Part shown: positions 22,101 through 40,328 of the stretch, piece by piece
How the letters are laid out: every line of letters starts with the position of its first letter
Position numbering within the stretch: position 1 is the stretch's first letter
Sequence record: ON286972
Reading direction: 5' to 3' (one strand)
Length of the DNA: 64,000 bases
Source of the DNA: Escherichia phage A4
Translations under genes and position numbers: made by a program
The notes under the pieces: generated by a model
Told to the model about the DNA's origin: nothing
The model's input: the letters and a program-made list of their open reading frames with translations, nothing else
The model's database searches: none

Positions 22101-23255
22101 TTGTTTGTCATAACCAATCACTACAATCTTAGCATCAAATGCTTCGACAGAAGTAATTGTAACATTCTCATCATCATCAAGCTGAATTTCACATTGAACT
22201 GCATCATTGTTAATATCATATACTTGAACAAAAACAAATTCTTTCAAGTGTCCAGTACTGGATATATTAATTTCATACATTTCACCATTGCGTGTCCATT
22301 CAGAAGAAGAGACATTTTGTACATATGGAGATGTTTGTAATGTACTACCCAATATACTTAGTTTTATAGGTGTATTATCATATATTGTTACTGTAATATC
22401 ACCAGTGGAGCTAACATTAATGCCAGCAGATACCAAATTATTATGATTATCATATACCTGAATAGCTAAGTTATTACCACGCCCATGTACATCACCAGGG
22501 ATTCTTGCACTATACACATCACCAGGCCCAGTACTGAATGTAGTTACTGATACAGTAGTGGTAAAGCCGTCATCATCACCAACATCTAATATATTAAAAT
22601 TAACGCTTTTTGTATTATAAAAATCAGACGTAAGAGTTATAGTTGCAGTTCCGGTTGACATAATTTCCGGTACTGTTATAATGAATTCATCATTGACTAT
22701 TGTACTCGTTGAATACTCGGACCCATCTGAAAATTTTACAGTAATTGTCATTCCTGTTGTGTTGATGGTTTGTCCAGCATTGAACAGTTTACCCGATATT
22801 TCAGTATCCCCAACATGAACCGGATTAACTAAAATATTATCTATATCACGATCAATAATTGAACAAGTTGGTGTGTACATATCAAAAGTAACATCGGAGT
22901 TTCCAAATATCGTTTTGTGTAATTGGAATTTAGTTACAAACCCTGTTGGATCTGTAGGTTTCAATTGATTAGTGTATCCACGAACAAAGAAAGTATTCTT
23001 TGCAATAACATCCAATAATTCATCATCGGATTTTTTATAGTTAAGTAAATTTCCTACCTTATCATAAGAAGTAATTTGTACGCGTCTATATATTTTGTTT
23101 GTTACAGGATCTATAATATCAAATAGTTTATAACTACGCTGTCTGTAAATTCTTATATTTTTTAATTTGGTTCCATCGATTAGTAAAGCACCATCCACGA
23201 TATAACCACATTCACCGAACTTGTATTCTCCGGCATCAGCTATGGTTCTAGACAT
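22098..23255 (-). CDS. beta-rich, Thr/Ser-rich protein (candidate virion/structural protein)
   Basis: 385-aa minus-strand ORF with GAGGGG SD, isolated among + strand genes; composition typical of fibre/Ig-like domains (inference). Confidence 0.6.
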   Translation of the reverse strand: MSRTIADAGEYKFGECGYIVDGALLIDGTKLKNIRIYRQRSYKLFDIIDPVTNKIYRRVQITSYDKVGNLLNYKKSDDELLDVIAKNTFFVRGYTNQLKPTDPTGFVTKFQLHKTIFGNSDVTFDMYTPTCSIIDRDIDNILVNPVHVGDTEISGKLFNAGQTINTTGMTITVKFSDGSEYSTSTIVNDEFIITVPEIMSTGTATITLTSDFYNTKSVNFNILDVGDDDGFTTTVSVTTFSTGPGDVYSARIPGDVHGRGNNLAIQVYDNHNNLVSAGINVSSTGDITVTIYDNTPIKLSILGSTLQTSPYVQNVSSSEWTRNGEMYEINISSTGHLKEFVFVQVYDINNDAVQCEIQLDDDENVTITSVEAFDAKIVVIGYDKQ

Positions 23256-28408: not shown

Positions 28409-29371
28409 GTGAAGAAACTAGACTTAAACGCAATTTCCGAAGAAGTACTGGATGAATGTTTTGCGAATGAAGAAGTCAATCCATTGGAAGCAATTGAACC
28501 ATCAGAAGTTATTGAAGATGATATTCCACATAAAGTTCGTAGTAAAAGTAACATTAGTCTCAAGCGTCCAGTAGGTGTGACTAATGAATCCATCATCGAA
28601 GAGATTCGTGCTGGAATTAATGTAAAAAAGAACACTGACCTATTACTTCGTTATAACTATGGTATGATCGTTGATGTTGCTTCAAAGTGTACATGTTATA
28701 TTCCGTTTGAAGATAAAATTGCATATGGTGTAGAAGGTTTTATGCGAGCACTTAAAACCTTTGATCTTAGTAAGAATGTCAAATTCATTACATATGCAAC
28801 AACGTCCGTTTATATGACTATGTATAATGAAAGTTCAGATGCAAATTACATGGTGTACTTACCACGTTATATGAGCGTTCATAACATCCAAGTACGTCGA
28901 TTTAATGAATCATATCAACGTGAACACGGTAAGCGACCTACACCAGAATTAATCTCTGAGAGTACTGGTATCGAGCTTCAGCACGTTAAGAACTGTTTGT
29001 TATACCAGAATGCATATACGACTCTTGATGCACAACTGGGTTCAGATTCAGACGGAACCCTTGGGGATATTCTGAGTTCATCTGCTCGTGATTATAACCT
29101 TAATGTTGATAGCATTTGTAATCCATTACGTTATGCAATCACAGAAATCATTGACGAATTGAGTACTAAAGAACGAGAAATTATCATGCGTGTTCATGGT
29201 CTTGGGGATTACAAAGCAGAAACCCTTCGTGAAATTTCTGATAATGGATATGTTGATGATAAAGGAAACATTGTTAAGTCCCGTTCATCTGTGCACCGAA
29301 AATATAGTGAAGCTATTCAAAAGCTTAAAAAAATAGTACTTGAAAAAGGGTACGAATACGAAGATTTCTAA
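28409..29371 (+). CDS. sigma-70 family RNA polymerase sigma factor
   Basis: region 2-like LLLRYNYGMIVDVA...GVEGFMRALKTFD...KFITYATTSVYM and region 4-like HTH TKEREIIMRVHGLG...TLREIS; GTG start after AGGAG SD. Confidence 0.75.
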   Translation: MKKLDLNAISEEVLDECFANEEVNPLEAIEPSEVIEDDIPHKVRSKSNISLKRPVGVTNESIIEEIRAGINVKKNTDLLLRYNYGMIVDVASKCTCYIPFEDKIAYGVEGFMRALKTFDLSKNVKFITYATTSVYMTMYNESSDANYMVYLPRYMSVHNIQVRRFNESYQREHGKRPTPELISESTGIELQHVKNCLLYQNAYTTLDAQLGSDSDGTLGDILSSSARDYNLNVDSICNPLRYAITEIIDELSTKEREIIMRVHGLGDYKAETLREISDNGYVDDKGNIVKSRSSVHRKYSEAIQKLKKIVLEKGYEYEDF

Positions 29372-34517: not shown

Positions 34518-35183
34518 ATGCTCGCCAATTTAAGTTACATTATTAGTGATGATATGGTACAAAGTCGTGGGATGTATCTTGAGAAAGTTCCATACGATAG
34601 CGATGGTATCAAAGGAACTTTATACGAAAGTCGTTTTGACAGAAAGCATCCATTCTGGGAAAAGGCTAATCTAACGGAAGAAGATAGTAATCGTTTATTT
34701 TGTGCTGTGCAGACACCTACACCTGGTATATTAGCGGGTTATGGTATAGATAAAGTCATTAACTTTATGACAGACTATGAAGTTATTGAACGTCTTCAAT
34801 ATATTAATACGAACAATGGTGAGTTCTATAATTCTGATGATTTTCTTGCTATGTGTAGTGCTTCATATGAGAGTGAATTATTGCCAAGTGGTAGACCATT
34901 CCCATTGTCAACACATTGTAATTCCCCTTACGGTGTAGCTGACAACTTACAGCAGATCCTTAAGAAACATAAGAATGTTCTTACATCTGAAATGGAAGTT
35001 GTTATTGGATTTCATCCAGTGTACAAGGAAGATCAACCTGAACATGGTGGGTGGCGTTGGCATAAGCACGGCACATACATTGGTACTCATAAGAAAAAGC
35101 ATGAGTACTTGTATGATGAAGAAGGTATTGATGTTGTTTATTGTTACGAACTAATCCCAGTAAAGAAAAAGGAAACACTATAA
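34518..35183 (+). CDS. hypothetical protein
   Basis: ATG ORF with TGAGGAA SD. Confidence 0.6.
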   Translation: MLANLSYIISDDMVQSRGMYLEKVPYDSDGIKGTLYESRFDRKHPFWEKANLTEEDSNRLFCAVQTPTPGILAGYGIDKVINFMTDYEVIERLQYINTNNGEFYNSDDFLAMCSASYESELLPSGRPFPLSTHCNSPYGVADNLQQILKKHKNVLTSEMEVVIGFHPVYKEDQPEHGGWRWHKHGTYIGTHKKKHEYLYDEEGIDVVYCYELIPVKKKETL

Positions 35184-35425
35184 TGTTAATTTTATACGTT
35201 GTACTGATTTTATTAGTTAACTTTTCTCCAACTATTTTAACTTTAGTATGGGGTAAATTTTATGATGCTGTAAAAGTATTTCTCTTGAATACTGCATGGG
35301 TATTGGTAAGTCTGACTCTTTATTGGTCTACTGATTGGATGATGATTGTGAGTCATATACTACTATATATTTCATTCCTAATGTTGTTCCAAGAAAAAGA
35401 AGTACTTGACAAACTTGAAGGTTAG
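35183..35425 (+). CDS. small membrane protein
   Basis: track ORF 35141..35425 trimmed to ATG after AAGGAAA SD; hydrophobic helices. Confidence 0.5.
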   Translation: MLILYVVLILLVNFSPTILTLVWGKFYDAVKVFLLNTAWVLVSLTLYWSTDWMMIVSHILLYISFLMLFQEKEVLDKLEG

Positions 35426-35434
35426 ACCTATAAT
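35406..35434 (+). promoter_or_regulatory. sigma70-type promoter (TTGACA-N17-TATAAT)
   Basis: overlaps 3' end of upstream gene, precedes gene 35458. Confidence 0.5.
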
Positions 35435-35457
35435 ATCCTTCTACTAAGGGGGATATT

Positions 35458-35718
35458 ATGGCAGTAGGTTTTGGTTCACCTGATAACCACCAAGAAACAA
35501 TACAAGCAACAATTGATAATGCTATTGACTTTGCTCGCTCAAATCTGTATAGTGGTGAGTCTGAAGAGTACTGCATCGACTGTGACTGTGAGATACCAGA
35601 GAAGCGGAGGTTAGTACTGAAGGGTGTAAAACGATGTGTTCAGTGTCAATCAAAGGTTGACAAGGTATATCAAGAGCGTTATAATAGACGTGGAAGTAAA
35701 GACAGCCAACTCCGTTAA
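35458..35718 (+). CDS. DksA/TraR-family C4 zinc-finger protein
   Basis: C-x2-C...C-x2-C-Q pattern CIDCDCEIPEKRR...RCVQCQ typical of TraR/DksA; SD AGGGGG. Confidence 0.6.
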   Translation: MAVGFGSPDNHQETIQATIDNAIDFARSNLYSGESEEYCIDCDCEIPEKRRLVLKGVKRCVQCQSKVDKVYQERYNRRGSKDSQLR

Positions 35719-35738
35719 ATTAATATGAGGAACTACTA

Positions 35739-36071
35739 ATGTTATCATTTATTCTTTCTATCCCTTGTTTTGTTCTTCTTTTTGTATTACTTTTTGAAGC
35801 ATTCCAGAAAGATGAAGAAGTTAAAAATGACCTACGTAAACTATTCAATCTGGATAGTCCAGTAGTTAGGATCTTTTATGTTTTAGTATGTGTGTATGCG
35901 GTTGTGTGGCTATTGGGCTTTTTATTACCACTATCTACTGTACTTGCATGGATTTCCGTTGTTGAAAATTTAGTAGCTATTGTATGGTTTATTCAATGTT
36001 TGTTTAGTGGTTTGGTTTCTGATTGGATTTTCTTACTTAAAATGAAGTTTAAATCAAAATCTGATAAGTAA
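35739..36071 (+). CDS. multi-pass membrane protein
   Basis: ATG ORF with GAGGAA SD; hydrophobic. Confidence 0.5.
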   Translation: MLSFILSIPCFVLLFVLLFEAFQKDEEVKNDLRKLFNLDSPVVRIFYVLVCVYAVVWLLGFLLPLSTVLAWISVVENLVAIVWFIQCLFSGLVSDWIFLLKMKFKSKSDK

Positions 36072-36162: not shown

Positions 36163-36528
36163 ATGGGAAAGCTTACAATTATAATAGCCATGATAATGGC
36201 ACTTAATGTTATGCCAGTTGAAGCTAACGAGGACGTTGCGTGGTTCGATTGCATAGGAAATGATGGACAGTGGCATACGTTTTCCAGTGATCCATATAAT
36301 GGTACTGATATACTAATAGATGGTGAAAATTATCGTTTTGTTAGTGAAAGTAAAATTGGCAACAAAAAGGTATCGACATTTAGAACTGATTCTGGTATAA
36401 TTGCTAATGTCATAATGATAGTTGATCCTGAAAATAATACAGGGGATATATATGTAGTGGTTTACCGTGATCATTCCAATAAAAGAAGTCTGGATCTTGA
36501 TAAACTTCATTTACATTGTCAAATATAA
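36163..36528 (+). CDS. secreted protein (signal peptide)
   Basis: N-terminal MGKLTIIIAMIMALNVMPVEA; SD GAGG. Confidence 0.55.
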   Translation: MGKLTIIIAMIMALNVMPVEANEDVAWFDCIGNDGQWHTFSSDPYNGTDILIDGENYRFVSESKIGNKKVSTFRTDSGIIANVIMIVDPENNTGDIYVVVYRDHSNKRSLDLDKLHLHCQI

Positions 36529-36542
36529 TTTAAGGTAAATCT

Positions 36543-36917
36543 ATGTTCAATAGTATCATTGGGTTCTCATTAGTACTTCCACAAATCATTTTTGGTATTT
36601 GTTTTGTAACTTTTATGATGGGGTCAATCTATGGTATATGGTATTACATTTTAAAACAATCAGATGGAATCATTTTAAAAATAACAATGCATTTTGATGT
36701 GGATTCACCAGCATGGAATTCATCTATTATTACCAATACATTGTATTTTATGATGATCATTTTGGAACAATTGGGATTTGTATCTAATAGTAATGTTTCT
36801 ATGACCGCAGGTATGGCAAGTATTTGTTGTTTGTGGTATATTGTTTATAAGATTGATGTGTTGTATAATATGTATCGTGAAATGGTATTGAACAGAGATA
36901 TGCAGAGGAAAAAATGA
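36543..36917 (+). CDS. multi-pass membrane protein
   Basis: ATG ORF; hydrophobic helices. Confidence 0.5.
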   Translation: MFNSIIGFSLVLPQIIFGICFVTFMMGSIYGIWYYILKQSDGIILKITMHFDVDSPAWNSSIITNTLYFMMIILEQLGFVSNSNVSMTAGMASICCLWYIVYKIDVLYNMYREMVLNRDMQRKK

Positions 36918-37267
36918 TGAAAGTTATATTATTTTTTATGTGTATTATTATGTGTGGTGTCTCTTATGCTGCACCCTTAGCCGGATTGCTTTGTAAAGAG
37001 AATTCTGAACAACACATATTCCAAGGGGATTCAGATGACCTTGATATCATTTACATCGATGGTACTGAATATACATACGTTAAAGACCATACTGTTGGTG
37101 ATATCAGTTTCACTGAATATGCAAAAACAGGTGACACTGATTATAGAGCCTACCTTCAAGTGAATATGATAGAGGGTGAAGACGGAACACAAGAAGTCAA
37201 ACTCGTACTTAAACGTATTGGAGATAAGGAGGCTGATTTTGGAGGTGAGTGTACATATGATGATTGA
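36914..37267 (+). CDS. secreted protein (signal peptide)
   Basis: ATGA overlap; N-terminal MMKVILFFMCIIMCGVSYA. Confidence 0.55.
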   Translation: MMKVILFFMCIIMCGVSYAAPLAGLLCKENSEQHIFQGDSDDLDIIYIDGTEYTYVKDHTVGDISFTEYAKTGDTDYRAYLQVNMIEGEDGTQEVKLVLKRIGDKEADFGGECTYDD

Positions 37268-37275
37268 TTAAAAAA

Positions 37276-37308
37276 GGTTGACTAACGTCAGCCTTTTTTG
37301 TTATACTG
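37276..37308 (+). terminator. terminator-promoter stem-loop cassette (stem contains TTGACT; T-run; then TATACT)
   Basis: GGTTGAC-TAAC-GTCAGCC TTTTTTG TTATACT; TTGACT to TATACT spacing 18. Confidence 0.6.
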
Positions 37309-37316
37309 ATCCCAAT

Positions 37317-37442
37317 ATGCTTGCATTTCTTCAAGTTGATGTATATGAAGAAAGTAATGGCGAACAGTATGTTAAACTTGTGATGATGCGTAAGGCAGCA
37401 AAACAGGCAACATTCGGTGGCTTGTGTAAATATGAGGACTAA
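37317..37442 (+). pseudogene. 41-codon ORF paralogous to the C-terminus of gene 36914..37267 (partial duplicate)
   Basis: LQVDVYEESNGEQYVKLVMMRKAAKQATFGGLCKYED vs LQVNMIEGEDGTQEVKLVLKRIGDKEADFGGECTYDD; directly after cassette. Confidence 0.45.
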
Positions 37443-37446
37443 ACAT

Positions 37447-37638
37447 ATGTTGATTTATCAATGTGATAACATTCGTGTTATACAGCATCCCTACTTACAA
37501 ATCTTTGATGTGCAGCAGTATATGGAAGGTGATGACCCAAGAACCTATGGTCGTAAGTATGATTACTTCACTGTAAAGCAGTGTCGTAACATCAAAGAAG
37601 TACGACAATTAGTTCAAGAACTTCAAAATAAAGGTTGA
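37447..37638 (+). CDS. hypothetical protein
   Basis: track ORF 37417..37638 (GTG) trimmed to ATG after GAGGA SD. Confidence 0.5.
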   Translation: MLIYQCDNIRVIQHPYLQIFDVQQYMEGDDPRTYGRKYDYFTVKQCRNIKEVRQLVQELQNKG

Positions 37639-37664
37639 CTTCGGTCAGCCTTTTTTGTTATAAT
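37633..37664 (+). terminator. terminator-promoter stem-loop cassette
   Basis: GGTTGAC-TTCG-GTCAGCC TTTTTTG TTATAATCATTTCATC. Confidence 0.65.
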
Positions 37665-38993: not shown

Positions 38994-38999
38994 ACTACG

Positions 39000-39030
39000 G
39001 GGTTGACATAAGTCAGCCCTTTTGTATAAT
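39000..39030 (+). terminator. terminator-promoter stem-loop cassette
   Basis: GGGTTGAC-ATAA-GTCAGCCC TTTTG TATAAT. Confidence 0.6.
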
Positions 39031-40060: not shown

Positions 40061-40284
40061 TGAAAAGGTATAAAATTGAATACCTACTTAAAGTAAGAGA
40101 GAAAAGTATTAGTAGTGAGAAATACACCAGTGAGATATTCGTCAGAGATGAGTATTACATTGGTGAAAATGAAGTTGAAGTACTGTTACAATGCATAGAA
40201 AATGAATTTCAAGATATGACACGTTATATGTCATTTGAGATATCGTGTGCAAAAGTTACATTCTTGAACAATACTTCATATTAA
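40057..40284 (+). CDS. hypothetical protein
   Basis: ATGA overlap. Confidence 0.5.
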   Translation: MMKRYKIEYLLKVREKSISSEKYTSEIFVRDEYYIGENEVEVLLQCIENEFQDMTRYMSFEISCAKVTFLNNTSY

Positions 40285-40288
40285 AAAA

Positions 40289-40313
40289 GGGTTGACTTTT
40301 GTTGACCCTTTTT
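40289..40313 (+). terminator. terminator stem-loop of the cassette family (GGGTTGAC-TTTT-GTTGACCC + T-run)
   Basis: hairpin with wobble pairs followed by TTTTT. Confidence 0.55.
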
Positions 40314-40320
40314 GCTATTC

Positions 40321-40328
40321 TATAAATA
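40321..40328 (+). promoter_or_regulatory. TATAAATA box (exact T4-type late-promoter consensus)
   Basis: TATAAATA about 47 nt upstream of the ATG of gene 40375, no -35 element. Confidence 0.4.

Follow-up and report, generated by a model that had tools for sequence, protein, structure and literature searches.

The question raised by this locus is whether Escherichia phage A4 encodes a DksA/TraR-type zinc-finger protein that acts on the RNA polymerase (RNAP) of its host. Host takeover by means of small RNAP-binding phage proteins is a recognised route; the F-plasmid protein TraR has phage homologs in lambda Orf73, P2 Orf82, VHML Orf8, and VP882 Gp61, and lambda Orf73 raises burst size 3–4 fold (PMC9239242). 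The DNA analysed here (the window, 64 kb at its full length) belongs to a phage, as the first-pass annotation had supposed. It matches 121Q and relatives (∼84% identity, ∼37% of a 24-kb stretch), and its relatives include the 348-kb Escherichia jumbo phage 121Q, PBECO4, SHEFM2K, and others.

The ORF at 35458..35718 (+) begins with ATG, contains its stop codon within these coordinates, and is translated into 86 aa (MAVGFGSPDNHQETIQATIDNAIDFARSNLYSGESEEYCIDCDCEIPEKRRLVLKGVKRCVQCQSKVDKVYQERYNRRGSKDSQLR). The cysteines of the protein follow the pattern C39-x2-C42, x17, C60-x2-C63-Q64, and I46-P47-E48-K49-R50-R51 sits amid the 17 residues separating the cysteine pairs; the string CIDCDCEIPEKRRLVLKGVKRCVQCQ cited in the first-pass annotation corresponds to residues 39–64. 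When these elements were re-read from the sequence, the 86-aa length, the coordinates, the C-x2-C-x17-C-x2-C-Q signature, and the IPEKRR motif given there were all exact. All conservation counts below refer to one alignment of 121 sequences, comprising the 86-aa protein and 120 homologs. An N-terminal MAxG[F/W] was present in 118/121 of them, and this near-universal start in the homologs, together with the Shine–Dalgarno sequence (Table 1), makes the start codon of the ORF secure. The six-frame ORFs of 40 aa or longer in the 64-kb window contain three CxxC-x10-25-CxxC strings. No second DksA/TraR member was found within the window, where one CxxC...CxxC ORF had profile support, the profile searches having covered one of the three (that at 35458–35718).

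Table 1 Features of the zinc-finger locus; coordinates are those of the window
Feature	Coordinates	Strand	Basis or remark
Perfect sigma-70 promoter, TTGACA-17 nt-TATAAT (12/12)	35406..35434	+	directly 5' of the gene
Shine–Dalgarno sequence AAGGGGGA	35446..35453	+	five nt 5' of the ATG, read from the sequence
CDS, 86-aa YbiI-type DksA/TraR-family C4 zinc-finger protein	35458..35718	+	profile, homolog, and structure matches
Non-helical glycine-rich N-terminal tip MAVGFGSPD, in place of the TraR DxxDxA	35458..35484	+	residues 1–9
Acidic N-terminal helix, equivalent to the N-helix that TraR inserts into the secondary channel	35485..35541	+	residues 10–28, AlphaFold
C4 zinc knuckle (predicted ligands C39, C42, C60, C63) and I46–R51 surface, then Q64	35572..35649	+	residues 39–64, conservation
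Second perfect sigma-70 promoter, inside the 3' end of the CDS	35657..35685	+	placed to drive ORF 35739–36071
Basic family-specific C-terminal tail YNRRGSKDSQLR	35680..35715	+	residues 75–86, conservation

The family of the protein was determined by profile searches. The Pfam search proposed as a check in the first-pass annotation returned PF01258 zf-dskA_traR with 31.7 bits against a gathering cutoff of 24.9 (E 1.5e-7, residues 37–67), and PHROG 54 'DksA-like zinc-finger protein' was matched with its entire profile covered (E 3.6e-20). The NCBIfam equivalog NF008243/PRK11019 (YbiI-type) scored 99.8 bits against a cutoff of 96, a small margin, with E 8.5e-29 and an alignment of residues 1–86 of the phage protein to 1–88 of 88. 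The TraR subfamily model TIGR02419 was not passed (50.2 vs a cutoff of 59.7), the TraR equivalog NF010268 fell far short (23 vs a cutoff of 108), and no DksA model was among the NCBIfam matches of the 86-aa protein. Among solved structures, E. coli YbiI (PDB 2KGO) was the best sequence match, aligning over both full lengths with 45% identity; the E-value was 2e-16 when the 86-aa protein alone served as query and 3.8e-36 when the family profile did. For TraR (5W1S, 6N57), the corresponding values were 1e-3 and 1.5e-11, and hhalign gave a 98.4% probability over residues 22–70, whereas DksA was matched with a profile E of 0.0066 over the zinc finger only (residues 33–72). The family comprises 1426 clusters of homologs in the protein database at E ≤ 1e-5, and taken together these matches lie well outside what chance would produce. 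By these sequence matches, the 86-aa protein is a YbiI-type member of the DksA/TraR C4 zinc-finger superfamily. The family label of the first-pass annotation thus holds at the level of Pfam and is refined to the YbiI type, neither the TraR models nor any DksA model having accepted the protein. It should not be filed as TraR, because it failed the TraR profile cutoffs and lacks the activity motif DxxDxA.

E. coli YbiI (88 aa) is collinear with the phage protein over its full length. Both proteins have a MAxG[F/W] start, an acidic helix, a C4 knuckle containing IPxxRR, and the same C-terminal YNRRGSKDSQLR. They differ in that the phage clade has 86 aa, F5, and D9-N-H, whereas the bacterial clade has W5 and D8-x-A10. 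More generally, bacterial members often carry W5-x-x-D8-x-A10, in which the second Asp and the Ala are kept, and the phage clade carries F5-G-x-x-D9-[NG]-[FH]. The nearest ∼50 homologs are 84–89 aa long and mostly start with MAVGFG, the named ones being from phages; after these come chromosomal bacterial proteins of 87–88 aa with a MAGGW start. Unlike the phage gene, which a consensus sigma-70 promoter precedes, host ybiI depends on sigma-S and is otherwise without an assigned function (PMC4447067). The sole functional observation on any YbiI-type protein comes from a 2009 report, in which overexpressed YbiI was said to rescue the amino-acid auxotrophy of a dksA deletion ('data not shown') and Blankschien et al. 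considered YbiI more likely tied to iron metabolism or an iron operon (PMC2613031). In the literature searched, neither a biochemical study nor a direct RNAP-binding experiment on any YbiI-type protein was found. The ybiI gene is also said to be mentioned in a Fur-regulon paper. The YbiI match therefore gives the phage protein a family name, not a mechanism.

To place the gene among those already known, its distribution was examined. The identical protein was present on 19 public contigs, including 352- and 359-kb ones inside NCBI bacterial assemblies, and a 99%-identical copy on a 358-kb contig carries the NCBI label 'DksA/TraR family C4-type zinc finger protein [Escherichia coli]'. A tblastn search found a homolog in 666 phage records, 663 of which cover at least 80% of the query. 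The phages bearing homologs are mostly T4-like and jumbo phages of Klebsiella, Escherichia, Acinetobacter, Erwinia, and Aeromonas, and many of the homologs are already annotated as DksA-like, DksA/TraR, or YbiI. All phage hosts named among the tblastn matches are Proteobacteria, the phylum with the RNAP Si1 and Si3 insertions that TraR uses. A further jumbo-phage relative is the Asteriusvirus 'DksA-like zinc-finger protein' (for example SHEFM2K M2K_0183; PHROG 54), an 85-aa protein with a MAVGF start and IPENRR. It is a paralog that is 40% identical, lies at a different locus, and ends in KRPPRNCWHRSMR rather than in the invariant tail; this C-terminus was considered as a frameshifted tail, and no tail remnant was seen in the other frames. 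The gene, its family name, and its occurrence in phages are already on record, since an identical sequence is public, the 99% copy is annotated, and PHROG 54 and hundreds of annotated homologs exist. In this respect, the finding is correct but ordinary.

The genomic surroundings were compared with those of related phages. The neighbouring ORFs are co-directional and small. A phage sigma factor that matches Pfam Sigma70_r3 and PHROG 351 is encoded at 28409–29371, 6 kb upstream, and is 73% identical to 121Q gp167; the phage thus does reprogram the host polymerase. In a search for partners among nine neighbouring ORFs (Pfam, PHROG), a function was assigned to none but the sigma factor. The flanks have counterparts in 121Q: 34518–35183 corresponds to gp185, the small ORF ending at 35425 to gp186, and 35739–36071 to gp187. 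At the gp186–gp187 site of 121Q, where the gap is ∼57 nt, no zinc-finger gene was found by tblastn. In the Klebsiella jumbo phage RCIP0023, the gene (71% identity) is in synteny, with homologs of these neighbours on either side, and in the Erwinia phage Kaldavass it is 73% identical and lies ∼2.5 kb downstream of the sigma factor. Because it is absent from this site in 121Q, syntenic in RCIP0023, and present in Kaldavass, the gene is an accessory cassette, present or absent at a conserved site.

The expression signals around the gene were then read. The −35 element of the promoter directly upstream falls within the final codons of the upstream ORF, and transcription is predicted to start at ∼35441, leaving a leader of ∼16 nt before the ATG. 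In the promoter embedded in the CDS, the −35 TTGACA derives from V67-D68-K69 (GTT GAC AAG) and the −10 TATAAT from Y75-N76; RCIP0023 retains an 11/12 version in the same codons. Perfect sigma-70 promoters number nine in the window, all on the + strand and between 22.6 and 42.9 kb, against an expected mean of 0.23 in dinucleotide-preserving shuffles, of which 0/100 reached nine. Since nine perfect host sigma-70 promoters cluster in this region, the array is presumably read early by unmodified host sigma-70 polymerase. The promoter at 35406..35434 is identical in five other contigs, which belong to the same near-identical lineage and are thus uninformative on conservation. 121Q, which is without the gene, has a comparable promoter in the gp186/gp187 gap. 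A dedicated promoter is absent upstream of the Kaldavass and RCIP0023 homologs, so that early expression cannot be claimed for the whole family.

Small size, and the lack of the gene at the 121Q site, which makes it dispensable in that sense, could be taken to mean that the ORF arose by chance or is a pseudogene in decay, without function. Against this, the full-length protein scores above the curated thresholds of two libraries, and ten alignment columns are invariant between it and the 120 homologs. The same protein recurs on 19 independent contigs, and a consensus promoter and a Shine–Dalgarno sequence precede the gene. Conservation effectively refutes such a reading, which we consider hardly credible.

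To characterize the fold, the protein was modelled with AlphaFold (mean pLDDT 76), which gave helices at residues 10–28, 48–53, and 61–67. The first of these had a block pLDDT of 78–85; no helix was modelled before residue 10, and the mean pLDDT of residues 1–10 was 58. The C-terminal region consists of the short helix 61–67 and then low-confidence coil, the TraR alignment stopping at residue 70–74; within it, the tail (residues 75–86) was modelled as coil with a low pLDDT of 50–61. Confidence in the model was moderate overall and low at both termini. Superposition of the model on TraR from the RNAP complex 5W1S gave a TM of 0.68 (TraR-normalised) and 2.3 Å over 62 columns. Foldseek matches to DksA were weak (TM 0.22–0.35), and the search of BFVD viral models returned solely other DksA-like phage zinc fingers, with modest scores. 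Superposition on the YbiI NMR model 2KGO gave an rmsd of 15 Å, presumably owing to flexible termini, so that the geometry of this comparison is uninformative.

The protein resembles F-plasmid TraR (73 aa; 5W1S, 6N57) in belonging to the same Pfam family, in having one N-terminal helix ahead of a C4 globular domain, in keeping the equivalents of I44-P45-E46-x-R48-R49, and in being carried on a mobile element of Proteobacteria. Its charge layout is also TraR-like, acidic in the N-terminal third and basic at the C-terminus; the net charge of phage residues 1–30 is −3, and that of TraR residues 1–28 is −2. Unlike TraR, it is without a DxxDxA tip, has an extra conserved 12-residue tail, and shows a shorter C-terminal helix in the model; its first 21 and last 16 residues (1–21 and 71–86) cannot be aligned to TraR by HMMER or hhalign, and the TraR profile cutoffs are not reached. 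The likeness to DksA (151 aa; PDB 1TJL) is distant and consists of the C4 zinc-finger globular domain. The phage protein is about half as long as DksA, has a single helix, and is without the coiled coil or the DxxDxA tip, and no segment of it aligned to the DksA C-terminal helix.

RNAP binding has been demonstrated experimentally for TraR-type proteins (PMC9239242). The TraR C4 globular domain touches the beta' rim helices and beta'Si3 via P43, P45, E46, R48, and R49 (PMC9239242, PMC6970531); P45, E46, R48, and R49 are needed for RNAP binding and the Si3 contact (PMC6970531, PMC9239242), and the C-terminal helix contacts betaSi1 (PMC9239242, PMC6970531). In the HMMER and hhalign alignments, phage I46-P47-E48-K49-R50-R51 aligns to TraR I44-P45-E46-A47-R48-R49. 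The equivalents of the four binding residues are P47 (119/121), E48 (91/121), R50 (121/121), and R51 (113/121). C39, C42, C60, C63, and R50 are invariant in 121/121, there being ten invariant columns in total, and I46, P47, R51, and Q64 are each at least 90% conserved. C44 (in CIDCDCE) was considered as an alternative zinc ligand and rejected, its column not being conserved and holding mostly E, A, or K. Because the rim/Si3 contact surface is conserved, the fold is TraR-like, and the protein belongs to the superfamily, docking on the secondary channel of host RNAP would be the best-supported mechanism as judged from sequence and model. We regard such docking as likely when a variant that acts by competition is counted in. 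Further support comes from the acidic N-terminal third, the consensus promoter and its co-directional array, the Proteobacteria as named hosts, the phage sigma factor, and the reported rescue of a dksA deletion by overexpressed YbiI (PMC2613031). Observations against docking of the TraR kind include the C-terminal helix, which is only partly matched, and the dedicated promoter, which is not kept in the Kaldavass and RCIP0023 homologs. The modulation of host RNAP proposed in the first-pass annotation is accordingly no more than plausible: a TraR-like fold and the P45/E46/R48/R49 equivalents speak for it, and the missing DxxDxA tip speaks against it.

The tip is where the phage protein departs most clearly from TraR. 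In TraR, the N-terminal helix (residues 2–27) places the DxxDxA tip only a few angstroms from the active-site Mg2+ (PMC9239242, PMC6970531). Both tip aspartates are required for the activity of TraR and lambda Orf73, not for binding (PMC9239242), and VP882 Gp61 also needs DxxDxA for activity (PMC9239242; bioRxiv 10.64898/2026.07.27.740977). The phage protein starts instead with M-A-V-G-F-G-S-P-D9-N-H-Q-E13 and has a conserved aromatic residue at position 5; Q12 is also a family feature. The canonical DxxDxA is absent from the phage protein and occurs in 2/121 sequences of the alignment, and the reading of the protein as a straightforward TraR mimic was rejected on these grounds. D20-x3-D24-x-A26 was rejected as an equivalent of the motif, since it is mid-helix rather than at the tip and its spacing is wrong. 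No alignment of the tip residues with TraR was obtained, the HMMER and hhalign alignments both ending at about residue 20–22, with hhalign pairing phage residue 22 onward with TraR residue 19 onward. If the register is extended without gaps, TraR D6 falls on either P8 or D9 according to how a one-residue indel is placed, which gives no firm equivalence.

A kept rim/Si3 surface combined with a missing active-site tip motif would suit a passive occupant of the secondary channel, which would exclude DksA/ppGpp and GreA/GreB and blunt the stringent response with no inhibition of rRNA promoters of its own. The separation of function from binding at the tip aspartates of TraR agrees with such a role, and Rnk provides a precedent as a secondary-channel binder that acts by competition only (PMC9239242). 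The strong conservation of the tip in the 121 sequences argues for an active role instead: besides the 118 with MAxG[F/W], an acidic residue is present at position 8 or 9 in 120/121 and at position 13 in 115/121. Perfect sigma-70 consensus promoters are expected to form stable open complexes and to be little affected by DksA-type regulation; the perfect sigma-70 promoters of the phage, expected to behave in this way, would fit a protein that merely occupies the channel. Overexpressed YbiI was nevertheless reported to replace DksA, not to antagonise it (PMC2613031), and overall we judge passive occupancy to be unlikely.

The other element that sets the family apart is the tail. All 121 sequences have a tail of the NRRGSKDSQLR type, with N76, R77, S80, K81, and D82 invariant; that of the phage protein, YNRRGSKDSQLR, is identical in E. 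coli YbiI and absent from TraR and DksA. The cysteines aside, no element of the family is better conserved than the tail, which TraR and DksA do without. It is predicted to be disordered alone, as is typical of motifs that become ordered on binding, and it could indicate a target other than RNAP. The zinc ribbon would then serve as a scaffold, and the tail and MAxG[F/W] would attach to nucleic acid or to a different host partner, in keeping with the stress or iron-linked role proposed for chromosomal YbiI. The sigma-S dependence of ybiI (PMC4447067) and its link to an iron operon (PMC2613031) point the same way, and some C4 zinc-finger homologs without DxxDxA are not DksA-like in action (PMC9239242). 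Against a different target, the residues by which TraR contacts RNAP are among the best conserved of the family, the fold matches the RNAP-bound conformation of TraR, and YbiI reportedly rescued a dksA deletion (PMC2613031); no alternative partner emerged from any search, and the neighbouring genes are without assigned function. We therefore hold a target other than RNAP to be improbable.

With these alternatives weighed, we read 35458–35718 as a genuine, expressed phage gene of the YbiI type and lean towards a product that docks on RNAP in a TraR-like manner and alters initiation. The analysis establishes the gene, the family and sub-family of its product, the fold, the pattern of conservation, and the promoter and Shine–Dalgarno sequences. 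The course of events that we infer, from early timing through RNAP binding to the transcriptional consequence, would begin with unmodified host sigma-70 RNAP transcribing the gene very early from the consensus promoter in front of it. Docking would come next, the zinc globular domain settling on the beta' rim helices and beta'Si3 via IPExRR and the acidic helix reaching into the secondary channel. Initiation would be altered without a need for ppGpp, and the takeover may thereby gain a means of redirecting host transcription. The phage protein and TraR probably differ in their effect on the polymerase, because the MAxG[F/W] tip replaces DxxDxA and an extra conserved tail is present. An extension of this reading, which we put forward tentatively and consider rather doubtful, is that the YbiI-type proteins form a mechanistically distinct class of secondary-channel proteins, in which the MAxG[F/W] tip lies at the active-site region and the basic tail adds a contact that neither TraR nor DksA has. 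If so, large lytic phages would use these proteins early for something other than mimicry of the stringent response; possibilities are that access of DksA and Gre factors is blocked or that the polymerase is locked in a state favouring consensus-type phage promoters.

Taken alone, a further member of so common a phage gene family changes little. The YbiI branch is biochemically uncharacterised, though E. coli itself and hundreds of jumbo and T4-like phages carry it, and it departs from TraR at the active-site tip and the C-terminal tail, the places expected to matter most. A phage copy with a consensus early promoter would offer a convenient handle on the function of the YbiI branch.

Comparison of the zinc-finger locus in the window (35425-35739) with the corresponding sites of phage 121Q (L003, 9650-9708) and the Klebsiella jumbo phage RCIP0023 (L002, 4001-4261) revealed that the zinc-finger gene differs by presence or absence at a conserved site. 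The gene was found in RCIP0023 in synteny with the window, whereas in 121Q no zinc-finger gene lies between gp186 and gp187. In the window, two TTGACAA...TATAAT promoters, 251 bp apart, flank the gene, and recombination between them could lead to deletion or insertion of the cassette. The perfect promoter at 35657-35685 is made of the coding sequence itself, and its TATAAT belongs to the conserved tail of the protein. The same codons of RCIP0023 hold an 11/12 version of this promoter, and 121Q, which is without the gene, carries a similar promoter within the short gp186/gp187 gap.

Features of the window around the zinc-finger gene
Feature	Position	Strand	Characteristics
Sigma-70-family sigma factor, phage-encoded, 320 aa	28409-29371	+	Pfam Sigma70_r3/r2; PHROG 351
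Perfect promoter made of coding sequence	35657-35685		-35, codons V67-D68-K69; -10 TATAAT, codon pair Y75-N76
ORF, ~120 aa, hydrophobic N-terminus	36163-36528	+	PHROG 27330; adjacent to next ORF
ORF, ~120 aa, hydrophobic N-terminus	36914-37267	+	PHROG 27330
Short ORF	37278-37442	+	ends ...QYVKLVMMRKAAKQATFGGLCKYED
Terminator-like hairpin	37630-37664		stem includes -35 TTGAC of strong promoter
ORF, 146 aa	37694-38134	+	PHROG 1106
Terminator-like hairpin	38999-39030		stem includes -35 TTGAC of strong promoter
Terminator-like hairpin	40284-40321		stem includes -35 TTGAC of strong promoter

A paralog of the zinc-finger protein, with 40% identity, was present at another locus in Asteriusvirus phages (Escherichia phage SHEFM2K, L009, 1501-1758). 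The SHEFM2K paralog and the window protein have the MAVGF start in common, and the paralog reads IPENRR, but its C-terminus is KRPPRNCWHRSMR in place of the invariant YNRRGSKDSQLR. A search of the other frames of the SHEFM2K paralog for a frameshifted remnant of the tail found none.

Between positions 22655 and 42902, the window contains nine perfect sigma-70 consensus promoters (TTGACA-N16-18-TATAAT), all on the + strand, compared with 0.23 expected from shuffles. This array marks the ~20-kb block of small co-directional genes as probably transcribed by the host polymerase, and thus as early genes. The sigma factor encoded by the phage itself shares 73% identity with 121Q gp167. In each of the three terminator-like hairpins, a T-run and a hexamer similar to a -10 element come after the stem; the clearest is that at 38999-39030 (GGGGTTGACATAAGTCAGCCCTTTTGTATAAT), where the -10 is a perfect TATAAT. 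In T4-type phages, composite promoter-terminator "PeSL" cassettes have been reported as mediators of the modular shuffling of genes (PMC2839356, PMC4122927), and the hairpins, here in a 121Q-like jumbo phage, resemble these cassettes.

The C-terminus of the second PHROG 27330 ORF (...QEVKLVLKRIGDKEADFGGECTYDD) is similar to the end of the short ORF that follows, and the three ORFs appear to be tandem paralogs, a small family whose third copy is truncated. For the 146-aa product, the precomputed annotation of identical contigs gives PF26820 (Phage_T4_Y00F), whereas the Pfam scan returned no match at E <= 0.01, a discrepancy that may reflect differing Pfam versions.

The phage lineage of the window was also found as single contigs of 352-359 kb within bacterial isolate assemblies (GCA_036253495.1, GCA_011911785.2, and GCA_012813795.2; L004, L005, and L008, respectively), at least one of which is labelled E. 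coli. Their occurrence as single contigs in isolate assemblies suggests that these phages either exist in a carrier or pseudolysogenic state or had contaminated the cultures that were sequenced.
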